IMG/VR virus record: IMGVR_UViG_3300031576_000024
Span: 18,992 to 82,991 of that record
From: a virus
DNA length: 64,000 nucleotides
Strand: one strand, 5' to 3'
Shown here: positions 3,506 to 64,000 of the stretch, piece after piece
Layout of the letters: each line of letters begins with the position of its first letter
How positions within the stretch are numbered: position 1 is the first letter of the stretch
Notes under the pieces: generated by a model
What the model was told of the DNA's origin: nothing
Seen by the model: the letters and a program-made list of their open reading frames with translations, nothing else
The model's database searches: none
Program-made: the position numbers and the translations under genes

Positions 3506-5366
3506 AGCCAGCAACATATTCAGTCTGGGACATGTGGAAGTAAACCTTAAAGACAGAGGTTTAATTCTTGTTACAGGGCATTCTTTAGATGAAGGATCAA
3601 GTAACGGTTCTGGTAAGTCAAGTATCGCTAACAAAGCAATACTGTGGTGTTTGTATGGGTACACAGCAGGTGGATTGAAAGCGGACGACATTCTCAATCG
3701 ACACGGCGACACGAAGACTGGTTGGGGCAAGATCGACTTTGAAGGATCTGATGGAAGCCTGTATGCTGTCCACAGGGCGCGACCTGCCAAATTGGACTTC
3801 TATAAGGATGGCGTCTGCTACAGCATGAAGAAGGCCGCGGAGACGCAGGCGCTCATTGACCACGCTCTAGGGCTGGATTTCAAGTCCTTCTTACATACAT
3901 ATATGTTTGGTCAGGGTCGTTTGTTTTCCTACGCATCACTGCCTCCGGCAGACCAAAAGGCGATCTTAGAGCAGATACTTCCTGTTGAGCAATTGGCTGT
4001 ATGGGTTGACTACGCTAAGACCTGTGTGTCAGATTTGCACACTGCTGAGGCAGCTCTAGCTTCTAAAGGTGCGATTTTACAAAGTGAAATCAATACCCAG
4101 AAGAATAACTGGCAGCAGGTTCAAGACAAGGCTATTCATTGGAATACGTTGCGTGAAAATAAGCTCAAAGACTCTCTTAACGACATTGCCGTACATAAGG
4201 AAGTGCTAGCAGAACGCGACTCCAGGCTGGTTGTCTTAAAAGACAGACTTGCTAAACTGCCTGATATTGCTCAGGAAATCCGAAACATCGACACTAAACT
4301 TGAGTCTCTTAACTCAGAGATCAATGATTGCCAATCCAAGATGCATCTTCTGGAAGAACGTAAGAGTCAATGGGACGGTGTGCGTTTATCGTCAAGTGCT
4401 AAGATGCACAAGATAGTCGATAGTAACTGTCCTACTTGCCATCGCGCCATTACTGACGAAGCTGTGAAGAACAAGCTGCTGGCCGATAACGTCATGCACT
4501 CCGAGAAGATGGCGGAGGCCGCCGTGAACATGGCTACATGCGCGACCATGTATCATACGGTTTCAGGTGAGCGCGGAGATAAAATTGATAAGTCACAAGA
4601 GCTATTCAGAGCCAAGATGGAACTAGAGGTTGTACGAAAAGAAGATACGCACTTTAGAGTGCAGATCGCAGAGTTGACAGCCCTGGAGAACAACGAAGAG
4701 AAGTACACGAAGCGGGCTGAGCAAATCGCCTCCGAGCGTAATCCATTCTTCGATCTAGTAGCGTCGTTCGATAAGGGCATATCTGAACTGCTAGTGAAGC
4801 AGGCTCCGCTTGAAGAACATAGATATAAGGTCAGCCGTGAGATTGAACATATCAATCACTGGCTCAAGGTCTTCGGTCATGATATAAGAATCAAACTGTT
4901 CGAGTCCGTGTGCAACTATCTGGACACACAGACCAACGAATATCTTAAGCAATTAAAGAACCCGTGGCTGAGGGTTCAGTTCAGTACGATTAAGAAGCTC
5001 GCCTCTGGGGAGGTGAAAGAAGACTTTAACGTTCGAGTATTCTCGGAGAAGGGCGGTGAAGGCTTTGAGACATTATCTGGAGGCGAGCAACAGATTGTAT
5101 CCTTTGCTATTGGGAAAGCATTAGGTGATCTTTCCAAAGCACAGACAAAGGGTAGCTCTGAGTTAACCATTTTGGATGAACCCTTTACAATGCTGGATTC
5201 TAGAAACTGTGAAGCTTTAGTTGAATTTCTTACAAAAGAAAAAGGTACTATCCTACTAATCAGTAACGATGAAAACCTAGCCAACTTAATTCCTGATAGA
5301 ATTCATGTGATTAAAGAAAACGGAGTTACAAGAATTTCAAATGCCGTCTATCAGACTTTTAACTAA
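3486..5366 (+). CDS. sbcC: SbcC/Rad50-like SMC ATPase
   Basis: Walker A NGSGKSS, coiled coil with CPTC zinc hook, signature LSGGE, Walker B ILDEP. Confidence 0.95.
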   Translation: MKLLKLEASNIFSLGHVEVNLKDRGLILVTGHSLDEGSSNGSGKSSIANKAILWCLYGYTAGGLKADDILNRHGDTKTGWGKIDFEGSDGSLYAVHRARPAKLDFYKDGVCYSMKKAAETQALIDHALGLDFKSFLHTYMFGQGRLFSYASLPPADQKAILEQILPVEQLAVWVDYAKTCVSDLHTAEAALASKGAILQSEINTQKNNWQQVQDKAIHWNTLRENKLKDSLNDIAVHKEVLAERDSRLVVLKDRLAKLPDIAQEIRNIDTKLESLNSEINDCQSKMHLLEERKSQWDGVRLSSSAKMHKIVDSNCPTCHRAITDEAVKNKLLADNVMHSEKMAEAAVNMATCATMYHTVSGERGDKIDKSQELFRAKMELEVVRKEDTHFRVQIAELTALENNEEKYTKRAEQIASERNPFFDLVASFDKGISELLVKQAPLEEHRYKVSREIEHINHWLKVFGHDIRIKLFESVCNYLDTQTNEYLKQLKNPWLRVQFSTIKKLASGEVKEDFNVRVFSEKGGEGFETLSGGEQQIVSFAIGKALGDLSKAQTKGSSELTILDEPFTMLDSRNCEALVEFLTKEKGTILLISNDENLANLIPDRIHVIKENGVTRISNAVYQTFN

Positions 5367-5388
5367 AGCTCTCGCCTACTTAGAAAGT

Positions 5389-5400
5389 TATGGTATAATT
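5389..5400 (+). promoter_or_regulatory. Possible copy of the phage promoter motif (TATGGTATAATT)
   Basis: Matches the core GGTATAATT of the motif repeated elsewhere; lies in the gap upstream of clpP. Confidence 0.4.
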
Positions 5401-5570
5401 GATACCGAGGTGGCGTTCGGTGGGTAATAGAAAGTGCTTATACGGTCATATGCCGTGTAAAAAAAGACCTATAAGTGGTAGTCTTGCTAATAAGTTAACA
5501 CAGCATAAGTACCAATTCAAAATAGTTCATGCGTGTATTAAGCATTTTAAAAAAGAAATGAGATTAGTCA

Positions 5571-6269
5571 ATGGCGGCTGAAGATAAGCTACTGAAGAAG
5601 TACGAAGCCTTAGACTACACTCACGACTCTGACATTGATCCTGAGCATTATCAGATATACCTCTTCGGCAGGGAAGATGCAAAGGAGGACATGGAGTTCG
5701 GTGAGCCGGGCGTTGAGTACAAGATGGCTAATAGGTTCATTAAGAACCTGCACTATCTGTCAGGCAGAGATCAGAAAAGACCCATTCTTATTCACATGAA
5801 GACATGTGGCGGGCATGTTGAAGAGGGTATGGCTATCTACGATACATTGCTCTCTATTCCTAATCCTACTACTATCATAAACTACACGCACGCACGCAGC
5901 ATGTCAAGTATAATCTTCCAGGCTGCTAATAAGCGCATAATGATGCCTAACAGTTACTTCATGTTCCATGAGGGAGAACAGGCTGTATCGGGTACATTCA
6001 AACAGGTAAACAGTATCATAGACTTCGGTAAACAGTTCAGCGATACCATGACAACCATATACGCTGAGCGAATGAAGCATACTCCCAAGGGTGCCCACAG
6101 GACTTGGACTATGGCTAGGATAAAAGACTGGCTCGTGCATGAAATGGACCGTAAAGAAGATGTACACCTTACCGCTATTGAGACTGTAAACATAGGACTG
6201 GCTGACGAAATATTCGTAGACTACGAAAGTGTATTTGCTTACACTAAGCAGCAGTTGAGTATAAAGTAA
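5571..6269 (+). CDS. clpP: ClpP-like serine protease
   Basis: TCGGHVEEGMAIYD, ARSMSSII (nucleophile Ser), FMFHE (His), EDVHLTAIETVNIGLADEI (Asp region). Confidence 0.88.
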   Translation: MAAEDKLLKKYEALDYTHDSDIDPEHYQIYLFGREDAKEDMEFGEPGVEYKMANRFIKNLHYLSGRDQKRPILIHMKTCGGHVEEGMAIYDTLLSIPNPTTIINYTHARSMSSIIFQAANKRIMMPNSYFMFHEGEQAVSGTFKQVNSIIDFGKQFSDTMTTIYAERMKHTPKGAHRTWTMARIKDWLVHEMDRKEDVHLTAIETVNIGLADEIFVDYESVFAYTKQQLSIK

Positions 6270-6430
6270 TGAAGTGTGTAACCAAAAATTGTAATCGTAA
6301 GACAATAAGTCTTAGAGAAGCCCATGTTATTGAAGCCATGCACTTAAAGGGTACAGTCGAATATAGTACACAGATGATATATGTTTGTAAAAAACACTAC
6401 ACTGAGTACATAAAGATGATGGGATATTAA

Positions 6431-6964
6431 ATGACCGCTAAGCGTACTAGAAAAGCTGGTAAGAGAAAGTGCAGAAGATGTAAAGTAGTCTTTGATACGC
6501 CGGATAAGTACGTGCAAATTTGTCCTAGATGTATGAATCATTGTGTAAGATGTGACAAAGAGTTAACTAAAGAGAATACAACTATAGGTAAAGGTAATCA
6601 TAAGACTTCATGTAAATTTTGTCACGCCGAATTACAAAATACCGATAAACGGAAGGATGCACGTTTAGTAAAGACATATGGTATTACTTTAAATGAATAT
6701 GAGAAAATTCTTCAATTACAAAGTGGAGCGTGTTACATCTGTGGAAAATCACCGTCAGAAACCGCCTACGCTCTATCTGTAGATCACAAACATGTAAAGA
6801 AAGATAAACAACAAAATCCACGGGAGACTAGAACGCGAGTTAGGGGACTACTGTGCTGGGTCTGTAATAAAGCGATTGCTAAGTTCAGAGACGACCCTGC
6901 TAGATTGAGAAAGGCTGCCGAATATTTAGAACGATGGCCTGCTCAAGAAATCCTGAAAGGATAA
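6431..6964 (+). CDS. Endonuclease VII-family nuclease (possible Holliday junction resolvase)
   Basis: YGITLNEY...Q.GACYIC...LSVDHKH...VRGLLCWVCN...AAEYL; N-terminal CxxC zinc ribbons. Confidence 0.88.
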   Translation: MTAKRTRKAGKRKCRRCKVVFDTPDKYVQICPRCMNHCVRCDKELTKENTTIGKGNHKTSCKFCHAELQNTDKRKDARLVKTYGITLNEYEKILQLQSGACYICGKSPSETAYALSVDHKHVKKDKQQNPRETRTRVRGLLCWVCNKAIAKFRDDPARLRKAAEYLERWPAQEILKG

Positions 6965-6968
6965 TACA

Positions 6969-7727
6969 ATGAGTGCTATGCGTATACTTCACCTAGATAT
7001 TGAGACGACACCAAACAAAGTCTACGCCTGGGGTCTTTTCCAACAAGACATTTATATAGATCAGATCGTAGAAGCCGGTAAAACACTATGTTGGGCGGCG
7101 AAGTGGCACGGTACCAAAGGTATGATGTTCAATTCCTTACACAAGGAAAAGACAAAGGGTGCTATGATTAAAGAGATCCATGCTCTGCTGGAAGAGGCAG
7201 ACGCCGTTGTTCATTATAACGGCAAGAAGTTTGACATCCCGGTGCTCAACAAGGAGTTCATTCTAGCTAATATAACTCCTCCTTCTGGCTTCAAAGAGAT
7301 TGACCTTCTGCACGTAGCCAAGCAACGCTTCCGCTTCACTAGCAATAAGCTAGACTATGTAGCTCAGACGCTAGGCATTGGTTCCAAGTTGCACCATAAG
7401 GGTATGGAGCTTTGGAAGGGTTGTATGGAGAACGACGCTAAGTCGTGGCAGACAATGGAAAAGTACAATAAGCAAGATGTTAACCTACTGGAGAAGCTGT
7501 ACGTAAAGGTATTACCGTGGATTAAACAGCATCCTAACCACGGTCTATATGTAGACGAGAATCGTCCGGTTTGTAAGAACTGCGGTAGCCCTAAGGTTAC
7601 TAAGAAGGGGGTTGAGTTTACCCAGGTTGGTAAGTACCAGAGATATCGGTGCAGCAGTTGTGGTACGCCTTTGCGCGGTTCAATCTTGCTTAACCCGATT
7701 GAAGAACGCAGACGATTGCTGAAGTAA
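6969..7727 (+). CDS. RNase H-fold (DEDD) 3'-5' exonuclease with C-terminal zinc ribbon
   Basis: LDIET, HYNGKKFDIP, KLDYVA, YNKQDV; C-terminal CKNC and CSSC. Confidence 0.88.
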   Translation: MSAMRILHLDIETTPNKVYAWGLFQQDIYIDQIVEAGKTLCWAAKWHGTKGMMFNSLHKEKTKGAMIKEIHALLEEADAVVHYNGKKFDIPVLNKEFILANITPPSGFKEIDLLHVAKQRFRFTSNKLDYVAQTLGIGSKLHHKGMELWKGCMENDAKSWQTMEKYNKQDVNLLEKLYVKVLPWIKQHPNHGLYVDENRPVCKNCGSPKVTKKGVEFTQVGKYQRYRCSSCGTPLRGSILLNPIEERRRLLK

Positions 7728-8443: not shown

Positions 8444-10038
8444 TGTCTAAATTAGGTCGATTCGCGGAAACTATTTTTGTTCGTACATACGCCGCAACGC
8501 ATGACGAAACTTGGGATGGTTGCGCAAGACGGGTAGCTGATTACGTAGCAGGCGACGATTACAAACATTTGGCAGATGACTTTTACAAGGCTATCTCTGA
8601 GCGTAAGTTCATGCCTGGAGGGCGATATCTAGCCCAAGCTGGTAAGGATATCCCCCAGCTAACCAATTGTTTCCTTTTGAGCGCAGAGGATTCCAGAGAA
8701 GGGTGGGCTCAACTGCTTAGGAAGCACATGATGGCATTATCTACCGGAGGCGGGGTCGGCACATGGTACGGAGACGTAAGACCGTCTGGACAGCCGATTA
8801 AGCGGTTTGGCGGGGTATCCAGTGGCCCTCTCGCCCTCATGTTCATGGTAAACGAGGTTGCACGTCACGTACTCTCGGGCGGGAAGCGTCGTAGCGCCTT
8901 ATGGGCTGGACTACCTTGGAACCACGGCGATATCGAAAAGTTCATTGTATCTAAGAACTGGTCTACAGCTATTCGGTCAATGAAGGAAAGTGACTTTAAC
9001 TTCCCGGCTACGTTGGACATGACAAACATCAGCGTGGCTCTAAATGATGAATTCTTCCAGAAGGTGAACAAAGATGATAAGGTATGGGACATCTACTATC
9101 GGGTCTGCAAAAACATGTGCAAAACAGGAGAACCGGGCTTTAGCATTGACACAGGAGTTAACGCTAAAGATGTTCTTCGGAATCCTTGTACGGAAGTTGT
9201 GTCGGCTACTGATTCTGACTGCTGTAATCTTGGTTCTATCAATCTAGCGAGGGTCAATGATATTGACGAACTAAAGAAGCTTACAAGACTTGCTGTAAAG
9301 TTTCTGTACCTGGGGACATTTCGTAGCTGGATGCCGGACGAATCGTTTGCTAAGATCCGCGAGAGGGATCGCCGGATCGGCCTGGGTATCATGGGTCTGC
9401 ACGAGTGGTGCATAAGACATGGAGAAAGATATGAGCCTAACGGCGAACTCGGCAAGTGGCTTGCTGCTTGGGCGAATATTAGCGACGATGAGGCCGTTAA
9501 ATTCAGTAAGGGAAAGGGAGCAAAGCCCGTTGCAGTTAGAGCAATCGCCCCAACGGGCACTATCGGAATTATAGCAGAAACAACGACAGGAATAGAACCT
9601 GTATTTTGCGTAGCCTATAAGAGACGCTGGCTTGGCACTGACGGACAGTGGGCCTCAGAATACGTTGTAGATCCTACAGTGAAGCGCCTACTAGATGAGG
9701 GTATCATTCAAGATCCCAATGACATTGAGGATTCAATCAAGCTAGCTCGGCATGTTGAACGTCGCATTCGGATGCAAGCCTTCGTTCAATCCTTCGTGGA
9801 TCAGGGTATCTCCAGTACGATTAACCTTCCTGAATACGGAGAGGCTGGTAATAACAATGTCAAGCAATTTGCTGAAACCCTTTTGGAATATTTGCCGAAG
9901 CTTAGAGGAATCACTGTTTATCCTGATGGTGCCCGCCCTGGTCAACCTATTACTAGCGTAAAGTGGGAGACAGCTATTAAGCACGCTAAAGTCGAAGAAC
10001 CAGAAGACAAGTGCTCCCAAGGCGCGTGCGGCATCTGA
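8443..10038 (+). CDS. nrdJ: Ribonucleotide reductase, probably class II (adenosylcobalamin-dependent)
   Basis: PGGRYL, TNCF, GEPG, NPCTE, CNLGSINL, IAPTGT, DQGISSTINLP, C-terminal CSQGACGI. No beta subunit nearby, so the class assignment is inferred. Confidence 0.88.
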   Translation: MSKLGRFAETIFVRTYAATHDETWDGCARRVADYVAGDDYKHLADDFYKAISERKFMPGGRYLAQAGKDIPQLTNCFLLSAEDSREGWAQLLRKHMMALSTGGGVGTWYGDVRPSGQPIKRFGGVSSGPLALMFMVNEVARHVLSGGKRRSALWAGLPWNHGDIEKFIVSKNWSTAIRSMKESDFNFPATLDMTNISVALNDEFFQKVNKDDKVWDIYYRVCKNMCKTGEPGFSIDTGVNAKDVLRNPCTEVVSATDSDCCNLGSINLARVNDIDELKKLTRLAVKFLYLGTFRSWMPDESFAKIRERDRRIGLGIMGLHEWCIRHGERYEPNGELGKWLAAWANISDDEAVKFSKGKGAKPVAVRAIAPTGTIGIIAETTTGIEPVFCVAYKRRWLGTDGQWASEYVVDPTVKRLLDEGIIQDPNDIEDSIKLARHVERRIRMQAFVQSFVDQGISSTINLPEYGEAGNNNVKQFAETLLEYLPKLRGITVYPDGARPGQPITSVKWETAIKHAKVEEPEDKCSQGACGI

Positions 10039-29879: not shown

Positions 29880-29898
29880 AAATCCTCCCGATACTACC

Positions 29899-51138: not shown

Positions 51139-51562
51139 AATTAGTCTCTATAAATCTAGCTAGTCTTTCAGCTTCCTCTTGTGTTTTAAAGTAAAAAGCT
51201 GCTGTCCATCTTTTATTTCTACTATGATAATGAACATTGTCTATAGAACTTTGTTTAATCGTTCTACACCGCCTATTCTTCATTTGTTCAGAACGTGTAG
51301 CCCATTTACAATTTTCAGGCGAATAATTACCATTATTATCTATACGGTCTAATGTTAAACCAGGCTTCCATCCAGGTAATATATCATTGAAAAAATTAGA
51401 ACTATTCAACCAGCGTTCACAGATTTTAATGCCTCTGCCGCCGTAATAATTATAATAAGTATTTTTAGGATTTAAACATCTGGCTTTGATGTTTAACCAT
51501 GTCTGATAAAGCGGATGTCTGTTATTCTTCCTAGCAAACCCATGTTTAATTTCATTCCTCAT
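51131..51562 (-). CDS. HNH-family homing endonuclease-like protein (paralog 6)
   Basis: Probable start MRNEIKHG; [12 protein letters not shown]...[19 protein letters not shown]. Confidence 0.85.
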
Positions 51563-51896
51563 CGGTAAAACTGAACCTCCCTTTTTCTTCAAACCCCGTT
51601 ATCACTCCCTCATCAATTCTAACGTTAGGAATGCCCCTTTGAGCCGCTTCTACCATCTTACGCTCATTATCTGTAAGTTGACCATTTTCTGATCTTGATA
51701 CAGCTTGCCCGGCTTCCTTAGCTAATTGCTTGTTAGAATCCCTAAGAGCAGCCGCCAATCCCTTTGTCATGTTCTTTTCCAAGGCATCTGCACGCACTTT
51801 CGCCCGTTCTAACTTTTGAGACTCCCTTTTTATTAGGGCCTCATTAGCTGAATGATAGTCGTCGTTATATTTCTCATTATTCATATACTCTCCCAT
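51552..51896 (-). CDS. Hypothetical protein
   Basis: 114-aa ORF directly downstream of the tandem promoter array. Confidence 0.5.
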
Positions 51897-51940
51897 TTAA
51901 TTATACCTTAATTATACTTTAATTATACATTATTTATACT
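51897..51940 (-). repeat. Four tandem 11-bp copies of the promoter core
   Basis: Plus strand TTAATTATACC-TTAATTATACT-TTAATTATACA-TTATTTATACT fills the whole intergenic gap. Confidence 0.9.
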
Positions 51941-57748: not shown

Positions 57749-57817
57749 TAATTATACCATATTCAAATCACTTCAAGTAAACATATCACATGTCGGCCAA
57801 AGATTAAGGTATAATTA
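57749..57817. promoter_or_regulatory. Divergent pair of phage promoter motifs
   Basis: TATGGTATAATTA on the minus strand (57749-57761) and AAAGATTAAGGTATAATTA on the plus strand (57799-57817). Confidence 0.75.
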
Positions 57818-57855: not shown

Positions 57856-58353
57856 ATGCACTACAAAGATATTTCAGGACAAAGATTTGGCAAATTAATT
57901 GCTGTATCATATGCGTACAATAAACGTTATGCTTACTGGCATTGTATGTGTGACTGTGGAAATACAGCCGTAATAAGAAGTGATACATTAAAGAATGGTA
58001 ATACTGAGTCATGCGGTTGCTTAGCTAAAGAGTGGACACAGACAGGTAAGATGAACCGTAAACATGGTATGCGTAAACATACTATTTACAAAGCCTGGAT
58101 TGCAATGAAACAGCGGTGTAATAATCCAAAGAATAAATCTTATAAAGATTACGGAGGACGCGGTATTAAAGTCTGTGACCGATGGTTAGAATCATTTGAT
58201 AACTTTAGAGATGACATGTTTCCTACGTGGCAAGAAAGTTTAACATTAGACCGAGTTAACAACGATGGCAACTATGAACCCGGTAATGTTAAGTGGTCAA
58301 CATGGAAGGAACAAGGCAATAACAGAAGGTCAAAGACATGCATGACTTCATAA
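57856..58353 (+). CDS. HNH-family homing endonuclease-like protein (paralog 7, different architecture)
   Basis: N-terminal DISGQRFGKL...WHCMCDCG...SCGC module, then [12 protein letters not shown]...[17 protein letters not shown]. Confidence 0.88.
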   Translation: MHYKDISGQRFGKLIAVSYAYNKRYAYWHCMCDCGNTAVIRSDTLKNGNTESCGCLAKEWTQTGKMNRKHGMRKHTIYKAWIAMKQRCNNPKNKSYKDYGGRGIKVCDRWLESFDNFRDDMFPTWQESLTLDRVNNDGNYEPGNVKWSTWKEQGNNRRSKTCMTS

Positions 58354-59138
58354 AAAGCCTATATGGCCGTCCTAGTACCATTACTACCTATAATAGTCTG
58401 TTCAAAAATCACATAGAACCGTTTGTTATAACACCTGTAACTGAACAACACCTTACTTCTTTGGTAAAACACTGGACCAGAGAAGGGATGTCAGAGAAGA
58501 CTATTAAACAAATGGTCCAACTTACTAATCAATATGCTAGATGGACAGGCCAAGCTCCTCTGCACACAGCACCTATAATTAGGAAGATTCAAAAGAGTAA
58601 ACAAGAGACAAAGATAAAGTCACTTACAAGTAAAGAAGCTAAATTACTCTTAGACTATTTAAGTGCTAAACAGTTATCGACATTGTATATTATCTGCTTG
58701 TTCGGAATACATGCGGGACTGAGAAGAGGCGAAATCTTTGGTTTACAATACGGGGACATAGATCCTTTGCGTAATCGCATAACCGTGTCTAGGCAGTACG
58801 GAGGTGCGCCGACAAAGAACGGGAAGACTAGGCAGGTACCGTTGAGTGAAAGATTAGCCAAAGCACTAGAACAACGAGACTACTTGACAAAACCGTCTAG
58901 AGAGGCTATTTTCAACGTTTTCGATCCCAACCCTGATTTGAAGAAGGTGACTATATTATTAGGAATTCGTGATATTACAATACATGATTTAAGACACACA
59001 TTTGCAACCCTAGCCCTGGAATCAGGTGTCTCACCTAGAACGGTGCAGTCGTGGTTGGGGCATTCATCATTAACAACAACTCTAAATATCTATTGGAGTT
59101 CGTTGCCCACAGAACAAAGGATGGATTTTGCCCCGTAA
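58338..59138 (+). CDS. Tyrosine recombinase/integrase
   Basis: Catalytic set AGLRRGE (R), TKNG (K), HDLRH, LGHS, NIYW (Y). Confidence 0.93.
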   Translation: MHDFIKSLYGRPSTITTYNSLFKNHIEPFVITPVTEQHLTSLVKHWTREGMSEKTIKQMVQLTNQYARWTGQAPLHTAPIIRKIQKSKQETKIKSLTSKEAKLLLDYLSAKQLSTLYIICLFGIHAGLRRGEIFGLQYGDIDPLRNRITVSRQYGGAPTKNGKTRQVPLSERLAKALEQRDYLTKPSREAIFNVFDPNPDLKKVTILLGIRDITIHDLRHTFATLALESGVSPRTVQSWLGHSSLTTTLNIYWSSLPTEQRMDFAP

Positions 59139-59690: not shown

Positions 59691-60685
59691 CCAAAAGAAA
59701 CGATATCAAAGGCGTATCCATAGTTGTCTCCAATAAGGTTGACTATAAGAATTACGGCGAATTGAACATCGTTTACGAAAATAATTTAATCTTAGAGGAA
59801 TTATCTTTCTTTATTTATTACGATAACTTCGTGAAGGTGACACACTAAACCCTACGTGGTCAAATACTTTGGCCTAGTGGTAGAGTGGATGGTAAACCAT
59901 CAGCTAGGCGAACACGCCCCTTTCATTCGTAAAGGTACACTATGTTCATAGACGATGATCTTTTCAACAACTACACAGTAATGATAACTAGCGGCAACGG
60001 CTATGACTACATATGTATCCTAGGCTGTGGTAAACAAGTCACCACGTTCCGTATAGAGAATATTATCTATAGTGACACCCTTAACTGCCCATCTTACATA
60101 TTGATTAAATACCATGCAGGTTGGGAAACCTATGCGCCCTTGATAGTAGAGTATTGCATCAATGATTTAAAGATCAACACTCTAGAGCTGATTGATGTAT
60201 ATGCCTGCAACTAGAGCACTATTCAGTAAATACCATGTAGAGGCATGGCCCGGTCACGGGGTTCATAAGACAACTAACATCAGGTTAAACTTTGTGGCCG
60301 ATAACGTTATAGTGTCCTGGGGCTCTATCTACGTATTTGACGGTAAGGACATAGAGCTTCACTGCTCTTATCGCTTCTTACCTCTGGCCGTTGAGTGGCT
60401 GGTGAACGAATATCCCTCTAGGAGCTTCTACCGTGTTACGTAGAGACTATAATCGTTACAAACTATTCCCGTCACACAATAGGTCTTTTGTATACATTTT
60501 TTATGACTACAATCTTGGATACTTCATAGAGCATTTGAAAATTGACCTTCTTAACGTTATTAGCATCAATAAGGCATTCCTTGGTACCCGCACCTCTTAG
60601 AGTGGCACGTAAACCGCTTTCCAGCTAAACCTGCACCTAAGTTATCTCCACCAAATCGGCAAAATACCTGGGCACTCATGATAGA

Positions 60686-61720
60686 CCCCGGGGGGCAATG
60701 CTCCCGCTGGGGGCCACCCCCCCTCGAACTTGCCTGTTAGTTGCCTATCCCTATCATTACAGTGCATCTAGGGTACAGTAACACGCAACTAGGTAGGCTA
60801 ACCCATTGATATTGCTAGACTTGCGCATTCCATGCGCATATGTTGCGTGTTTATTTAATCATGGGATTAAATAGTCAATATGTCCGCTCACTTAACCCAT
60901 CTTTTACCTATAAACATCACAATAACTGCACACTAATAGACCCATGTTGCCTGTTAGTTGCTCCGCAACAATCTGCACTACTGTACTCTACCCAACCTGT
61001 CCTGCACACCCCTGCCCACCGTATGCGCATCAAACGTGCAATTAACCAGCAACTAGGATAGTTGCTTATTGTCTGCCTGTTATCTGCTAGCTATTTGCAT
61101 ACGCAATTGATGTGCAACTAAACGGCAAGTATGATGATTGCGTATTAGTTGCCTATTATATGCTGGTTAATTGCATGTGCAATATGCGCTCTCTTGACCG
61201 TACACTGTGCAGAGTCGGAGTTGCCTATTCATGTACCCTAATTTGCTAGCATCTTCCTATTAGTTGCTAGCATTCTGCGCATTGTGATCCCGGCGGGGAA
61301 TCACACTCTGGATTCTTTAATGAATTCGCAGAGTTATAATGTTTGTTGCGCATTACTTGCGTGGTCATTGCGTGCTTACTTACCCTCTACTGCTTACAGA
61401 TTGCTAGCATGTTGCACTAGGTCATTGTGCAACTATCCTCCTAACCAGAGCGTATCCATTACGTTATTCGTCAGACTCACTGTAGCCTGCCCTGCTAACG
61501 TTATGCCTTGCCCCGCCCTGTACCAGCGCCTTGTAGCCGATCGTCGATCCTGGAGCATCCTAGAACGTGGCCGAATTTCGTCAATGATTCCGCATACTTA
61601 GCTCGTGTCATGCACACTCCTGAATAACTCAATGAATTCGCATAGTTGCGAGCTTAGTTGCCTACTTGTTAATGTTTGTCGCTCCCTATCTCTTATATAG
61701 GTTTTCGTCCCCGGGGGGGC
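60686..61720. repeat. Non-coding array of degenerate ~11-bp motifs (approx. CTRTTAGTTGC), both orientations, bracketed by CCCCGGGGGG boxes
   Basis: TTGC/GCAA recurs at 11-bp spacing (e.g. 60728-60748, 60946-60962, 61037-61175); C4G6C at 60686 and C4G7C at 61709. Confidence 0.7.
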
Positions 61721-62087: not shown

Positions 62088-62142
62088 CTAGCCTTGACGA
62101 ATAGGTTAGGGTTGCTAACCTTAGCCTATCGGTCAACGTTAG
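62088..62142 (+). other. Long intergenic RNA hairpin 1
   Basis: TTGAC-GA-ATAGGTTAGGGTT / AACCTTAGCCTAT-CG-GTCAA with G-U pairs; just upstream of the RBS of ORF 62162. Confidence 0.75.
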
Positions 62143-62161
62143 CTTACCTAAAGGTAACATC

Positions 62162-62515
62162 ATGCGCGATTCTGTGACACTGGAAAAACTAGGCTTCTCT
62201 TTCGGGATGCTGAATGGGACCGCAGGCTATGTCAAGCTATATCCCCAGGGTTCGCTGGTAATCGTGCCGCGTACTCGCAAGGGATGGGACGCAATGTCCC
62301 CGAGACGTTCCAGGGTTCGCAAAGGCGTCCTAGTGTCGCTAGGTTGTCATAAGGGCGGAAAGGCTTTCCGAAAGTGGCTCCTATCCCTTGACGCAATCGC
62401 GCGGATTCCCGCATCTTGGATATGGAAGGATGATTCCACGGGATCGCTGAATTCCTCGCAAGGTGCGCGCATCGTAAAGCGCTTGCATTGGAAGGGTGGG
62501 CCGCATGCTCGCTAG
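62162..62515 (+). CDS. Basic hypothetical early protein
   Basis: 117 aa with AAGGT RBS after hairpin 1. Confidence 0.5.
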   Translation: MRDSVTLEKLGFSFGMLNGTAGYVKLYPQGSLVIVPRTRKGWDAMSPRRSRVRKGVLVSLGCHKGGKAFRKWLLSLDAIARIPASWIWKDDSTGSLNSSQGARIVKRLHWKGGPHAR

Positions 62516-62562
62516 TGTGACCGAAACGTCACATTTGACACTTTCTTAGATTCTGGTACACT
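62516..62562 (+). promoter_or_regulatory. Sigma70-type promoter with adjacent palindromic operator
   Basis: TTGACA (62535-62540), 16-nt spacer ending TGG, TACACT (62557-62562); TGTGAC-N6-GTCACA at 62516-62533. Confidence 0.65.
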
Positions 62563-62628
62563 CACTCAATAGACGCCGCTTGAATGTTTCAATCGGCACT
62601 AACTCAAGAAAAGGATAAGGTTAACATC

Positions 62629-62976
62629 ATGGCAAAGAATACGACTACGACGACTTCGACCGTCAAGCCTCGCGGCGGTAGGAGTGGCAAGGCTCGCGAG
62701 CGGCGTTCATTCTGGAGCCGCGCGCTTCAGGCTCCGAAGGTTCAGGAGGCTCTGACTTCGCTGAACGTGTCGGAGGCCGCTTTCGAGAAGGCTTACAACT
62801 CCACCCGAAAGATGCGCGAGCGAGGCGAGATTTCCGAGGCGCAAGTTGCGGCACTCAAGGGTTTTTCGGAGCATCGCAACCTTCGGAAGCTTGCCGAGGC
62901 AATCGGCAAGTCGGATATCACGGCGGCGAATCTGCTCGCGCGTGGTATCGAGTCGGGACTCGTGAAGCTTGCCTAA
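62629..62976 (+). CDS. Basic protein with C-terminal winged-HTH-like motif
   Basis: Start MAKNTTTT after AAGG RBS; LRKLAEAIGKSDITAANLLARGIESGLVKL. Confidence 0.55.
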   Translation: MAKNTTTTTSTVKPRGGRSGKARERRSFWSRALQAPKVQEALTSLNVSEAAFEKAYNSTRKMRERGEISEAQVAALKGFSEHRNLRKLAEAIGKSDITAANLLARGIESGLVKLA

Positions 62977-63245: not shown

Positions 63246-63324
63246 TTAGCTAAGATTGAATAGGTTAGGTTCGTGCCCAATTGCACGGTAATATAACCTT
63301 CCTAATCTATTCAATCTTAGCTAA
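63246..63324 (+). other. Long intergenic RNA hairpin 3 (24-bp stem)
   Basis: TTAGCTAAGATTGAATAGGTTAGG / CCTAATCTATTCAATCTTAGCTAA with one G-U pair; inner CGTGC/GCACG hairpin. Confidence 0.85.
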
Positions 63325-63338
63325 ACAAGGAATAGGTC

Positions 63339-63811: not shown

Positions 63812-64000
63812 ATGAATAAACTATATTCTGTATGGCTACAGCGTAATAAGCTACGTGCCGAGGGCAATAAGCTACATGCCGAAGGCTATAAGTTATATGC
63901 CGAAGGCTATAAGCTACGTGCCGAAGGCGAGAAGCTACATGCCGAAGGCTATAAGTTATATGCCGAGGGCGAGAAGTTATATGCCGATGGCGAGAAGCTA
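63812..64000 (+). CDS. Heptad-repeat protein (xKLxAEG)n, runs off the window
   Basis: MNKLYSVWLQR-NKLRAEG-NKLHAEG-YKLYAEG-YKLRAEG-EKLHAEG-YKLYAEG-EKLYADG-EKL. Confidence 0.7.
   Translation, partial: MNKLYSVWLQRNKLRAEGNKLHAEGYKLYAEGYKLRAEGEKLHAEGYKLYAEGEKLYADGEKL
63845..64000 (+). repeat. 21-bp tandem repeat, at least 7.4 copies
   Basis: Consensus NANAAGYTAYRTGCCGARGGC with no spacers. Confidence 0.95.

Follow-up and report, generated by a model that had tools for sequence, protein, structure and literature searches.

An intergenic array of about forty 11-bp motifs in the genome of an uncultured phage, possibly a replication origin

Phased arrays of short repeats are already known from replication origins, from centromeres and from the boxes of response regulators. 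The boxes of OmpR/PhoB-type response regulators are head-to-tail sites that lie 11 bp apart from centre to centre and vary in number, and CtrA, a host regulator with an 11-bp half-site spacing, reportedly acts on phages. Large numbers of sites, as in sopC and parC, fit centromeres better than origins. Here we describe an array of about forty 11-bp units in the genome of an uncultured phage. It lies at positions 60686 to 61720 of a 64,000-bp stretch (the window, whose numbering is used throughout), which corresponds to bases 18,992-82,991 of one 82,991-bp virus record in IMG/VR (IMGVR_UViG_3300031576_000024, the contig). Two described systems resemble it most closely. The lambda-type origin, in which iterons and an AT-rich region form the O-some, is an established model (PMC7466680). 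In R388, stbS comprises ten 9-bp YTGCATCAT repeats in two sets of five, separated by 2-bp spacers, and hence has an 11-bp cycle; StbA binds cooperatively to two adjacent repeats, and its operators carry two, three or five repeats (bioRxiv 10.1101/2022.04.29.490116). We could confirm the stbS repeats in the R388 record (L108, 16290-16440). The locus described here differs from these in the scale of about forty units, the mosaic of orientations, the intergenic position without a recognisable partner gene and the C4G6 boxes that bracket the array. A keyword-bound literature search brought up no description of so large an array in a phage, which is no claim of absence from print.

The region is an array with an 11-bp period, it is unique in the contig and it is non-coding. 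Judged against the densities in the 64-kb window, the trinucleotide TGC occurs 47 times in 60686-61720 where 16.1 copies are expected, TTGC 23 times (4.6 expected) and GCAA 10 times (3.4 expected). Seven of the 11 window copies of TAGTTGC and all five window copies of TTAGTTGC fall into the region, and TTGCCTGTTAGTTGC is located at 60730 and 60947. At a distance of 11 bp we counted 17 TGC pairs, compared with 1.17 ± 1.12 in dinucleotide shuffles (maximum 6 in 500) and a mean of 2.06 after random placement of the 47 TGC sites (maximum 9 in 2000). Distances of 10 and 12 bp yield one pair each, a distance of 22 bp nine pairs (vs 1.1), and TTGC pairs at a distance of 11 bp number six (vs 0.09). 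Hence the 11-bp periodicity that had been proposed from the sequence is significant against shuffled sequence. All of the ten highest-scoring 500-bp windows across the contig (82,991 bp) are located in the array (up to 17 pairs at this distance; mean 0.33), which also holds nine of the 11 genome copies of TTGC-N7-TTGC and all five genome copies of three phased YTGC. Every string quoted in the original prediction is found where it had been placed (61138-61174, 61103-61130, 60730, 60947, 60686 and 61709). The open reading frames (ORFs) of the region had been considered spurious, and this holds: with a codon-usage score trained on 28 long genes, which themselves average +0.20, the three ORFs inside the array (73, 45 and 105 aa) have log-odds of -0.13 and resemble wrong frames, whereas small flanking ORFs that look real reach +0.13 to +0.19.

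The unit is 11 bp long and reads YTGC-N7; its YTGC core is fixed, while the tail is kept less strictly (consensus TTGCnYRTTAn). Fourteen blocks of two to six units together hold 39 of the 65 TGC sites in 60700-61450; nine of these blocks are on the plus and five on the minus strand, so that both orientations are present as predicted. The dense core, with about 39 phased units on the two strands, extends from 60730 to 61432. It is best ordered in 61062-61182, where four forward units, the junction TTGCATACGCAA, three reverse units, four forward units, the junction TTGCATGTGCAA and one reverse unit follow each other; both junctions are head-to-head, with palindromes of the form TTGC-N4-GCAA at 61095 and 61171. 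The longest forward chain (61346-61423, plus strand) counts six units including one 22-bp step and begins 5 bp past a TATAAT at 61336-61341. To the right of the dense core, a GC-rich spacer of 177 bp without units (61433-61609, up to 62% GC) is followed by a right-hand cluster of four units (61610-61668), part of a 42-nt direct repeat with 61308-61349. The description as a 1-kb helically phased array therefore stands only in part: the step inside the blocks is exactly 11 bp, but the dense part is restricted to 60730-61432 and the phases of the blocks modulo 11 differ. A Fourier test for a single global period was marginal, and one global 11-bp phase across the whole region was rejected.

Such a pattern might also be left behind by tandem repeats that slipped and were reshuffled in a decaying intergenic region without function. 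The spurious ORFs would suit such debris, as would the lack of evidence for conservation. Two- and three-unit blocks are repeated in direct and inverted orientation at 73-94% identity, and a 37-nt three-unit block of the longest chain recurs at 60821-60857 with 73% identity. However, only four bases per unit are fixed, and still the 11-bp step is exact in 14 separate blocks on both strands. Since only core and spacing are kept across the blocks, we consider this the signature of selection on a binding core rather than of recent duplication. Tandem Repeats Finder reports just a single 1.9-copy array at 90% identity. Repeat debris is thus a scarcely probable explanation.

We conclude that the region is most probably a cooperative protein-binding array. 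The original prediction of a DNA element that is coated with protein and offers one site per helical turn agrees with the anatomy and with two analogues, stbS and the origins inside initiator genes; protein binding itself, like the nature of the binder, is what we infer from these. A sequence-specific protein would coat the approximately forty 11-bp sites cooperatively, one protomer per helical turn, and short protein runs would point towards the palindromic head-to-head junctions as nucleation sites.

As to the function of the array, which rests on analogy, our favoured and tentative reading is an iteron-type replication origin or replication-control region, to which we assign a probability of roughly one in three. 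If this were the case, an initiator on the blocks would bend the DNA and open a neighbouring AT-rich stretch, and the opened DNA could then be used for loading the DnaB-like helicase, the primase and the PolA of the phage. Origins of phages with O-like or DnaD-like initiators, that is of the lambda ori type, likewise consist of short repeats, some of them palindromic, beside an AT-rich stretch. In IMG/VR they typically show an 11-bp step, as does the array described here, with units such as TTGCTTATTTT. The exact 11-bp step, the blocks of two to six units on both strands, the excess far above chance and the uniqueness within the contig all speak for this reading. Moreover, with a helicase, a primase and a PolA of its own, the phage needs a defined replication start.

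The base rate in IMG/VR also points to an origin. A scan for four TTGC at 11-bp steps gave at least 117 loci. Among the matches listed, an ORF of at least 80 aa spans the match in 82 of the 117 loci; in 52 the match lies inside an initiator-like ORF, and three more overlap one in part. The set of initiator-like ORFs had been grown with phmmer from six PHROGs-annotated replication initiation/primosomal proteins (E <= 1e-5, four rounds). The ORFs of the 52 loci encode homologues of phage proteins of the replication-initiation, primosomal, DnaD-like or O-like kind, and among the top 25 PHROG families of the 124 spanning ORFs all named ones are 'primosomal protein', 'DnaD-like helicase loader' or 'replication initiation protein'. 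Units of the arrays in initiator genes, for example TTGCTTATTTT and TTGCCATTTGG, resemble those of the present array. With TCGT as control core, 41 of 118 loci fall inside initiator-like ORFs as well. The idea that TTGC is a core specific to initiator origins had therefore to be rejected; what characterises phage origins is the 11-bp step and not this core.

Outside initiator genes, intergenic arrays of this type are heterogeneous and comprise origins, operators, packaging or partition sites. Two of them adjoin long AT-rich tracts, which by analogy would suit an origin: in one (L350), TTGCATATGCAA palindromes like those at 61095 and 61171 abut the tract, and the other is found at L194. The head-to-head pattern TTGC-N7-TTGC-N4-GCAA-N7-GCAA occurs at 31 loci, eight of them in initiator-like ORFs and the others with mixed neighbours. 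In the present locus a 120-bp AT-rich stretch (60450-60570, 28-32% GC in 60-bp windows) to the left of the left box adjoins the array and may itself be coding; were the array an origin, the DNA might be unwound here. The contig-wide cumulative GC skew has its minimum at about 61510, inside the array, and its maximum at about 20510, a course that is confounded by array composition and gene orientation.

Several observations weigh against an origin. Phage initiator origins carry 4-10 units inside the initiator gene (IMG/VR loci and PMC7466680), whereas the present array counts about forty units in 14 blocks on both strands, without a common phase, in 1.1 kb of non-coding DNA. An initiator was not found in the 83-kb contig: the initiator families phrog_3992, phrog_2562 and phrog_9327 had no match there, nor had Rep3_N, and the best hit of a phmmer search with 96 initiator-like queries had an E value of 0.003. 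About 31% of the genome is missing from the contig, so this absence is not decisive. None of 31 related stretches contains an array for comparison, and the genes next to arrays outside initiator genes are of mixed kinds (regulators, integrases, terminases, ParB). The AT-rich stretch lies in a 55-aa ORF (60433-60600) whose coding score is near zero (0.012) and which may be coding nonetheless, and the minimum of the GC skew stems partly from the C-rich top strand of the array itself and from gene orientation.

If the array were a site for positioning or a kind of centromere, as in StbA/stbS or ParR/parC, a small DNA-binding protein would coat the repeats, and the resulting segrosome would tether or partition an episomal phage. 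The array and stbS share the YTGC core, the 9+2 = 11-bp cycle and repeat sets of two to five, with the same step and similar block sizes. The large number of sites, as in sopC and parC, and the recombinase conserved in the lineage, which could resolve dimers, would suit such a site as well. However, the 10 units of stbS all share one orientation and lie immediately before stbA, compared with about forty units in both orientations here, and unit positions 5-9 read nYRTT in the present array but ATCAT in stbS. No homologue of R388 StbA could be detected in the contig by tblastn or phmmer (best E ~1-4). The ParA families AAA_31 and CbiA and the family ParB_N had no match in the contig, which is 69% complete; StbA_N (ParM) had none either, but its control also matched nowhere. 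Furthermore, sites of the stbS type are also found as dispersed operators and here none lies outside the array, and the gene content with PolA, ribonucleotide reductase (RNR), a UvsX-like protein and SbcCD resembles that of a large virulent phage. In view of this we consider a centromere-like site rather unlikely.

A conserved gene with similarity to helix-turn-helix (HTH) proteins 0.9 kb downstream of the array would be in line with a centromere too, its HTH match being weak (E 0.5-2). It belongs to a conserved gene pair that starts 0.45-0.9 kb right of the array. The first gene of the pair, which is also the first well-supported gene right of the array, encodes a conserved basic protein of 117 aa without a known family (62162-62515, plus strand), with seven homologues at 68-82% identity; its AF2 model has a pLDDT of 59 and gave no fold match at E <= 0.001. 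The second encodes a conserved protein of 115 aa with a basic N-terminus and an HTH-like C-terminus (62629-62976, plus strand), a putative binder with 12 homologues at 52-73% identity. Its AF2 model (pLDDT 72) has six helices, and the best Foldseek matches in PDB are the HTH domains of Lrp/AsnC, LsrR, DeoR and MarR proteins at E values of merely 0.5-2. A profile search of 1.84 billion representatives brought up 26 relatives of the 115-aa protein that share no Pfam family; neither the protein nor 25 distant relatives contain a Pfam family, there was no plasmid match, and the ESM Atlas was uninformative. Judging from the equal lengths of contigs that carry their homologues, the two genes seem to travel together, and either the 117-aa or the 115-aa protein could be the binder of the array. 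The pair (62162-62976) is kept at 52-82% identity in metagenomes, at least as well as the portal in most relatives (51-89%), and it sits in an island of 54% GC in a genome of 44% GC. Two long, near-perfect hairpins with a common AATAGGTTAGG lie directly before gene starts on this side, at 62088-62145 before 62162 and at 63246-63325 before 63339. Their RNA folds have z values of -5.3 and -8.3, equal stability was reached in 0 of 200 shuffles, and their sole Rfam match is a chance match to an miRNA (E 0.01). These hairpins may serve the rightward genes as regulatory elements or as terminators.

A further possibility is an exceptionally large operator with many sites, which would be filled by a repressor or activator of the phage, or by a response regulator of the host that recognises 11-bp direct repeats, so as to switch the rightward genes. 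We scanned the 104 ORFs flanking 28 TTGC loci that have at least five 11-bp pairs and lie outside initiator genes (among the matches listed): regulators or repressors (up to eight members) and integrases (five) are the commonest, followed by terminase subunits (2-3 each) and ParB-like proteins (two). The present locus has an integrase 1.5 kb left of the array and the HTH-like protein 0.9 kb right of it, and the TATAAT at 61336-61341 is directly followed by three units. Host regulators with 11-bp half-site spacing are said to act on phages, CtrA being an example. However, forty sites over 700 bp far exceed known operators, and the OmpR/PhoB and CtrA boxes have another consensus and occur as 2-5 units at promoters throughout the genome, not as one 700-bp cluster. 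Sigma-70-like promoters are not enriched (15 vs 13.8 expected), there is no second operator anywhere in the 83 kb, and the probable promoter element of the phage, GTATAATTAA, is absent from the array. Taken together, a switch of this kind appears just as unlikely as a centromere-like site.

The element GTATAATTAA forms a second 11-bp tandem array, GTATAATTAA(A/G) in four copies, at 51897-51939 on the minus strand directly upstream of the gene 51552-51896. This 10-mer with TATAAT is also found at 29898, 30351, 40855, 43264 and 57748 on the minus strand and at 57809 on the plus strand, and its sites precede other minus-strand genes and the HNH gene. Allowing at most one mismatch, there are 16 matches vs 6.9 expected, and 16 were reached in none of 100 shuffles. 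It is probably the -10 element of this phage's promoters.

It might also be that the array is no origin but a novel type of 'landing pad' on the phage DNA, where about forty sites collect a small protein of the phage, or sequester a DNA-binding protein of the host, in one large nucleoprotein body. Like StbA, which needs no partition NTPase, this body would keep the genome in position or tether it, or else the array would be a DNA decoy in the course of takeover; the C4G6 boxes could then be boundary elements, and the carrier would be a large phage with its own replisome. We regard this as distinctly unlikely. The remaining probability falls to unknowns such as a decoy.

The boxes do bracket the region, as had been predicted: CCCCGGGGGG, the C4G6 sequence, occurs in the contig solely at 60686 and 61709. 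The left box reads CCCCGGGGGGC (60686-60696, plus strand) and the right box CCCCGGGGGGGC (61709-61720, plus strand); the copies are in direct orientation, 1,023 bp apart. A first-order Markov model predicts 0.0175 exact copies in 64 kb (P(>=2) = 1.5e-4). At one mismatch three copies are found vs 0.84, and three were reached in 8 of 100 shuffles, which is weak and not significant. As terminators or hairpins the boxes do not stand out, since RNA folding was no better than in shuffles (z -0.35 and -0.07 for the left box), and the count of the terminator scan was below expectation.

A tyrosine recombinase nearby had been noted as well and is indeed encoded 1.5 kb to the left (58338-59138, plus strand; 266 aa; phrog_1 at 1.8e-46, PF00589 at 1.4e-25 over residues 95-255). 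This raises the question of whether the array could be made up of accessory sites of this enzyme, or be an excisable or invertible cassette with the C4G6 boxes as crossover sites. Such a cassette would fit with the array being bracketed, in direct orientation, by the contig's sole pair of CCCCGGGGGG copies and with the recombinase at this short distance. On the other hand, the two boxes resemble each other over no more than about 14 bp, and the recombinase has no domain besides PF00589 and, to judge from its length, is probably too short to have room for an arm-binding domain.

A protein search based on the portal yielded one IMG/VR locus (L001) and 30 metagenome loci at 51-89% identity, and these 31 stretches contain neither a TGC array nor a repeat whose period is not a multiple of three. 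One of them shows a modest excess at a distance of 11 bp (12 vs 6; L084, 1151-1551) in sequence that reads as coding. Five (L082, L084, L091, L102 and L105) extend beyond the structural module and carry an integrase homologue of 35-42% identity in the same divergent position. The array is absent beside the integrase in all five, from which it follows that it is not tied to the recombinase, and the idea that it forms the recombinase's accessory arms is disfavoured. In the five relatives the integrase is directly followed by same-strand homologues of genes that are on the opposite strand here (4241-6993 of the contig). This gene order suggests a large inversion or rearrangement next to the recombinase, and the apparent inversion is a point in favour of a recombining cassette. 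No joint is visible in assembled contigs, in which rare forms would be missed. Altogether, a role as a recombination cassette is highly improbable.

Other searches for relatives added little. An exact 15-mer search of IMG/VR gave 74 stretches, all chance-like and none with the array (at most five pairs at a distance of 11 bp). A search with a 1142-aa protein brought up one weak locus, and searches with a 167-aa protein and the 115-aa protein gave nothing usable in viral or genome contigs. The candidate relative L109 was discarded as a spurious match.

Two runs of one sample (X1 and X2) contain the region as assembled contigs, one of which may be the source of the record. The X1 contig covers 56000-63898 without difference, break or joint. 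The X2 contig (depth 2.8) has an inserted A at 61670 and one G fewer at 61713 in the right box, single-base differences that may be homopolymer errors; the X2 variant would make both boxes identical (CCCCGGGGGGC). Inversion or excision at the C4G6 boxes, which had also been considered, has no support in the X1 and X2 contigs, although contigs can exclude neither ends nor rare forms.

These contigs bear likewise on a packaging, terminal-repeat or injection-stop region of linear virion DNA. An HNH endonuclease gene 2.3 kb to the left would suit a packaging region, and terminases do flank a few intergenic 11-bp arrays in IMG/VR (phrog_2 with three of the 104 flanking ORFs, small-subunit families with two each; L372). 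However, we found no terminase in the contig, neither with Terminase_6N nor among 40 ORFs scanned against PHROGs. The X1 contig runs through the array without a joint or loose end; contigs as such cannot show ends, and X1 may be the source. The end of the record itself at 64000 is an assembly break in a coding tandem repeat and no physical end. Packaging or terminal repeats, as put forward in the original prediction, are thus unsupported and very unlikely. The repeat at the end of the contig (63846-64000) is a coding 21-bp tandem repeat of 7.4 copies, with heptads such as NKLRAEG and YKLYAEG. The ORF containing it begins at 63812, and Logan unitigs, short and of unequal depth, accumulate there.

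In IMG/VR the record is classed as 'linear' with a CheckV completeness of 69%. The 115-aa protein is also recorded on a contig of 129,437 bp, so about one third of the genome is unseen and the phage genome has a size of roughly 120-130 kb. The contig contains genes for a portal, a major head protein, internal virion proteins, an SbcC-like and a UvsX-like protein, ribonucleotide reductase and glycosyltransferases. Its first 19 kb encode methyltransferases, a DnaB-like helicase, a primase and a PolA-type polymerase, with a patatin, an HNH-like protein and a deacetylase preceding the helicase. Near its replication genes the phage also has genes for a phospholipase of the patatin type (PF01734, 1.6e-33) and for a glycosyltransferase of family 17 (4e-18), at 8794-9849 and 64-918 of L076. 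The structural genes lie on the minus strand, from 57704 down to 21509. On the plus strand, from 57856 onwards, the HNH endonuclease and the tyrosine recombinase are followed by five small ORFs, the array and small genes up to the contig end; it is plausible that the array is situated just upstream of the early region, as had been suggested. At the DNA level there is no similarity to known phages, and the sole match of the capsid protein is one Microbacterium phage (two accessions) with 29% identity. As far as such comparisons tell, the phage is without close relatives among deposited phages. Rfam and tRNA scans of this sequence gave nothing relevant.

The survey of IMG/VR offers a cheap marker for the annotation of phage origins, as four short repeats at an 11-bp step lie inside an initiator gene in 35-44% of the loci listed. 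The array itself is several times larger and more mosaic than iteron and stbS/parC arrays, and it could show how cooperativity with one site per helical turn scales. If it is indeed an origin or a centromere-like site, it would be the first functional landmark in an uncultured lineage without a close relative in phage databases, and it would provide a DNA-protein pair that can be tested.

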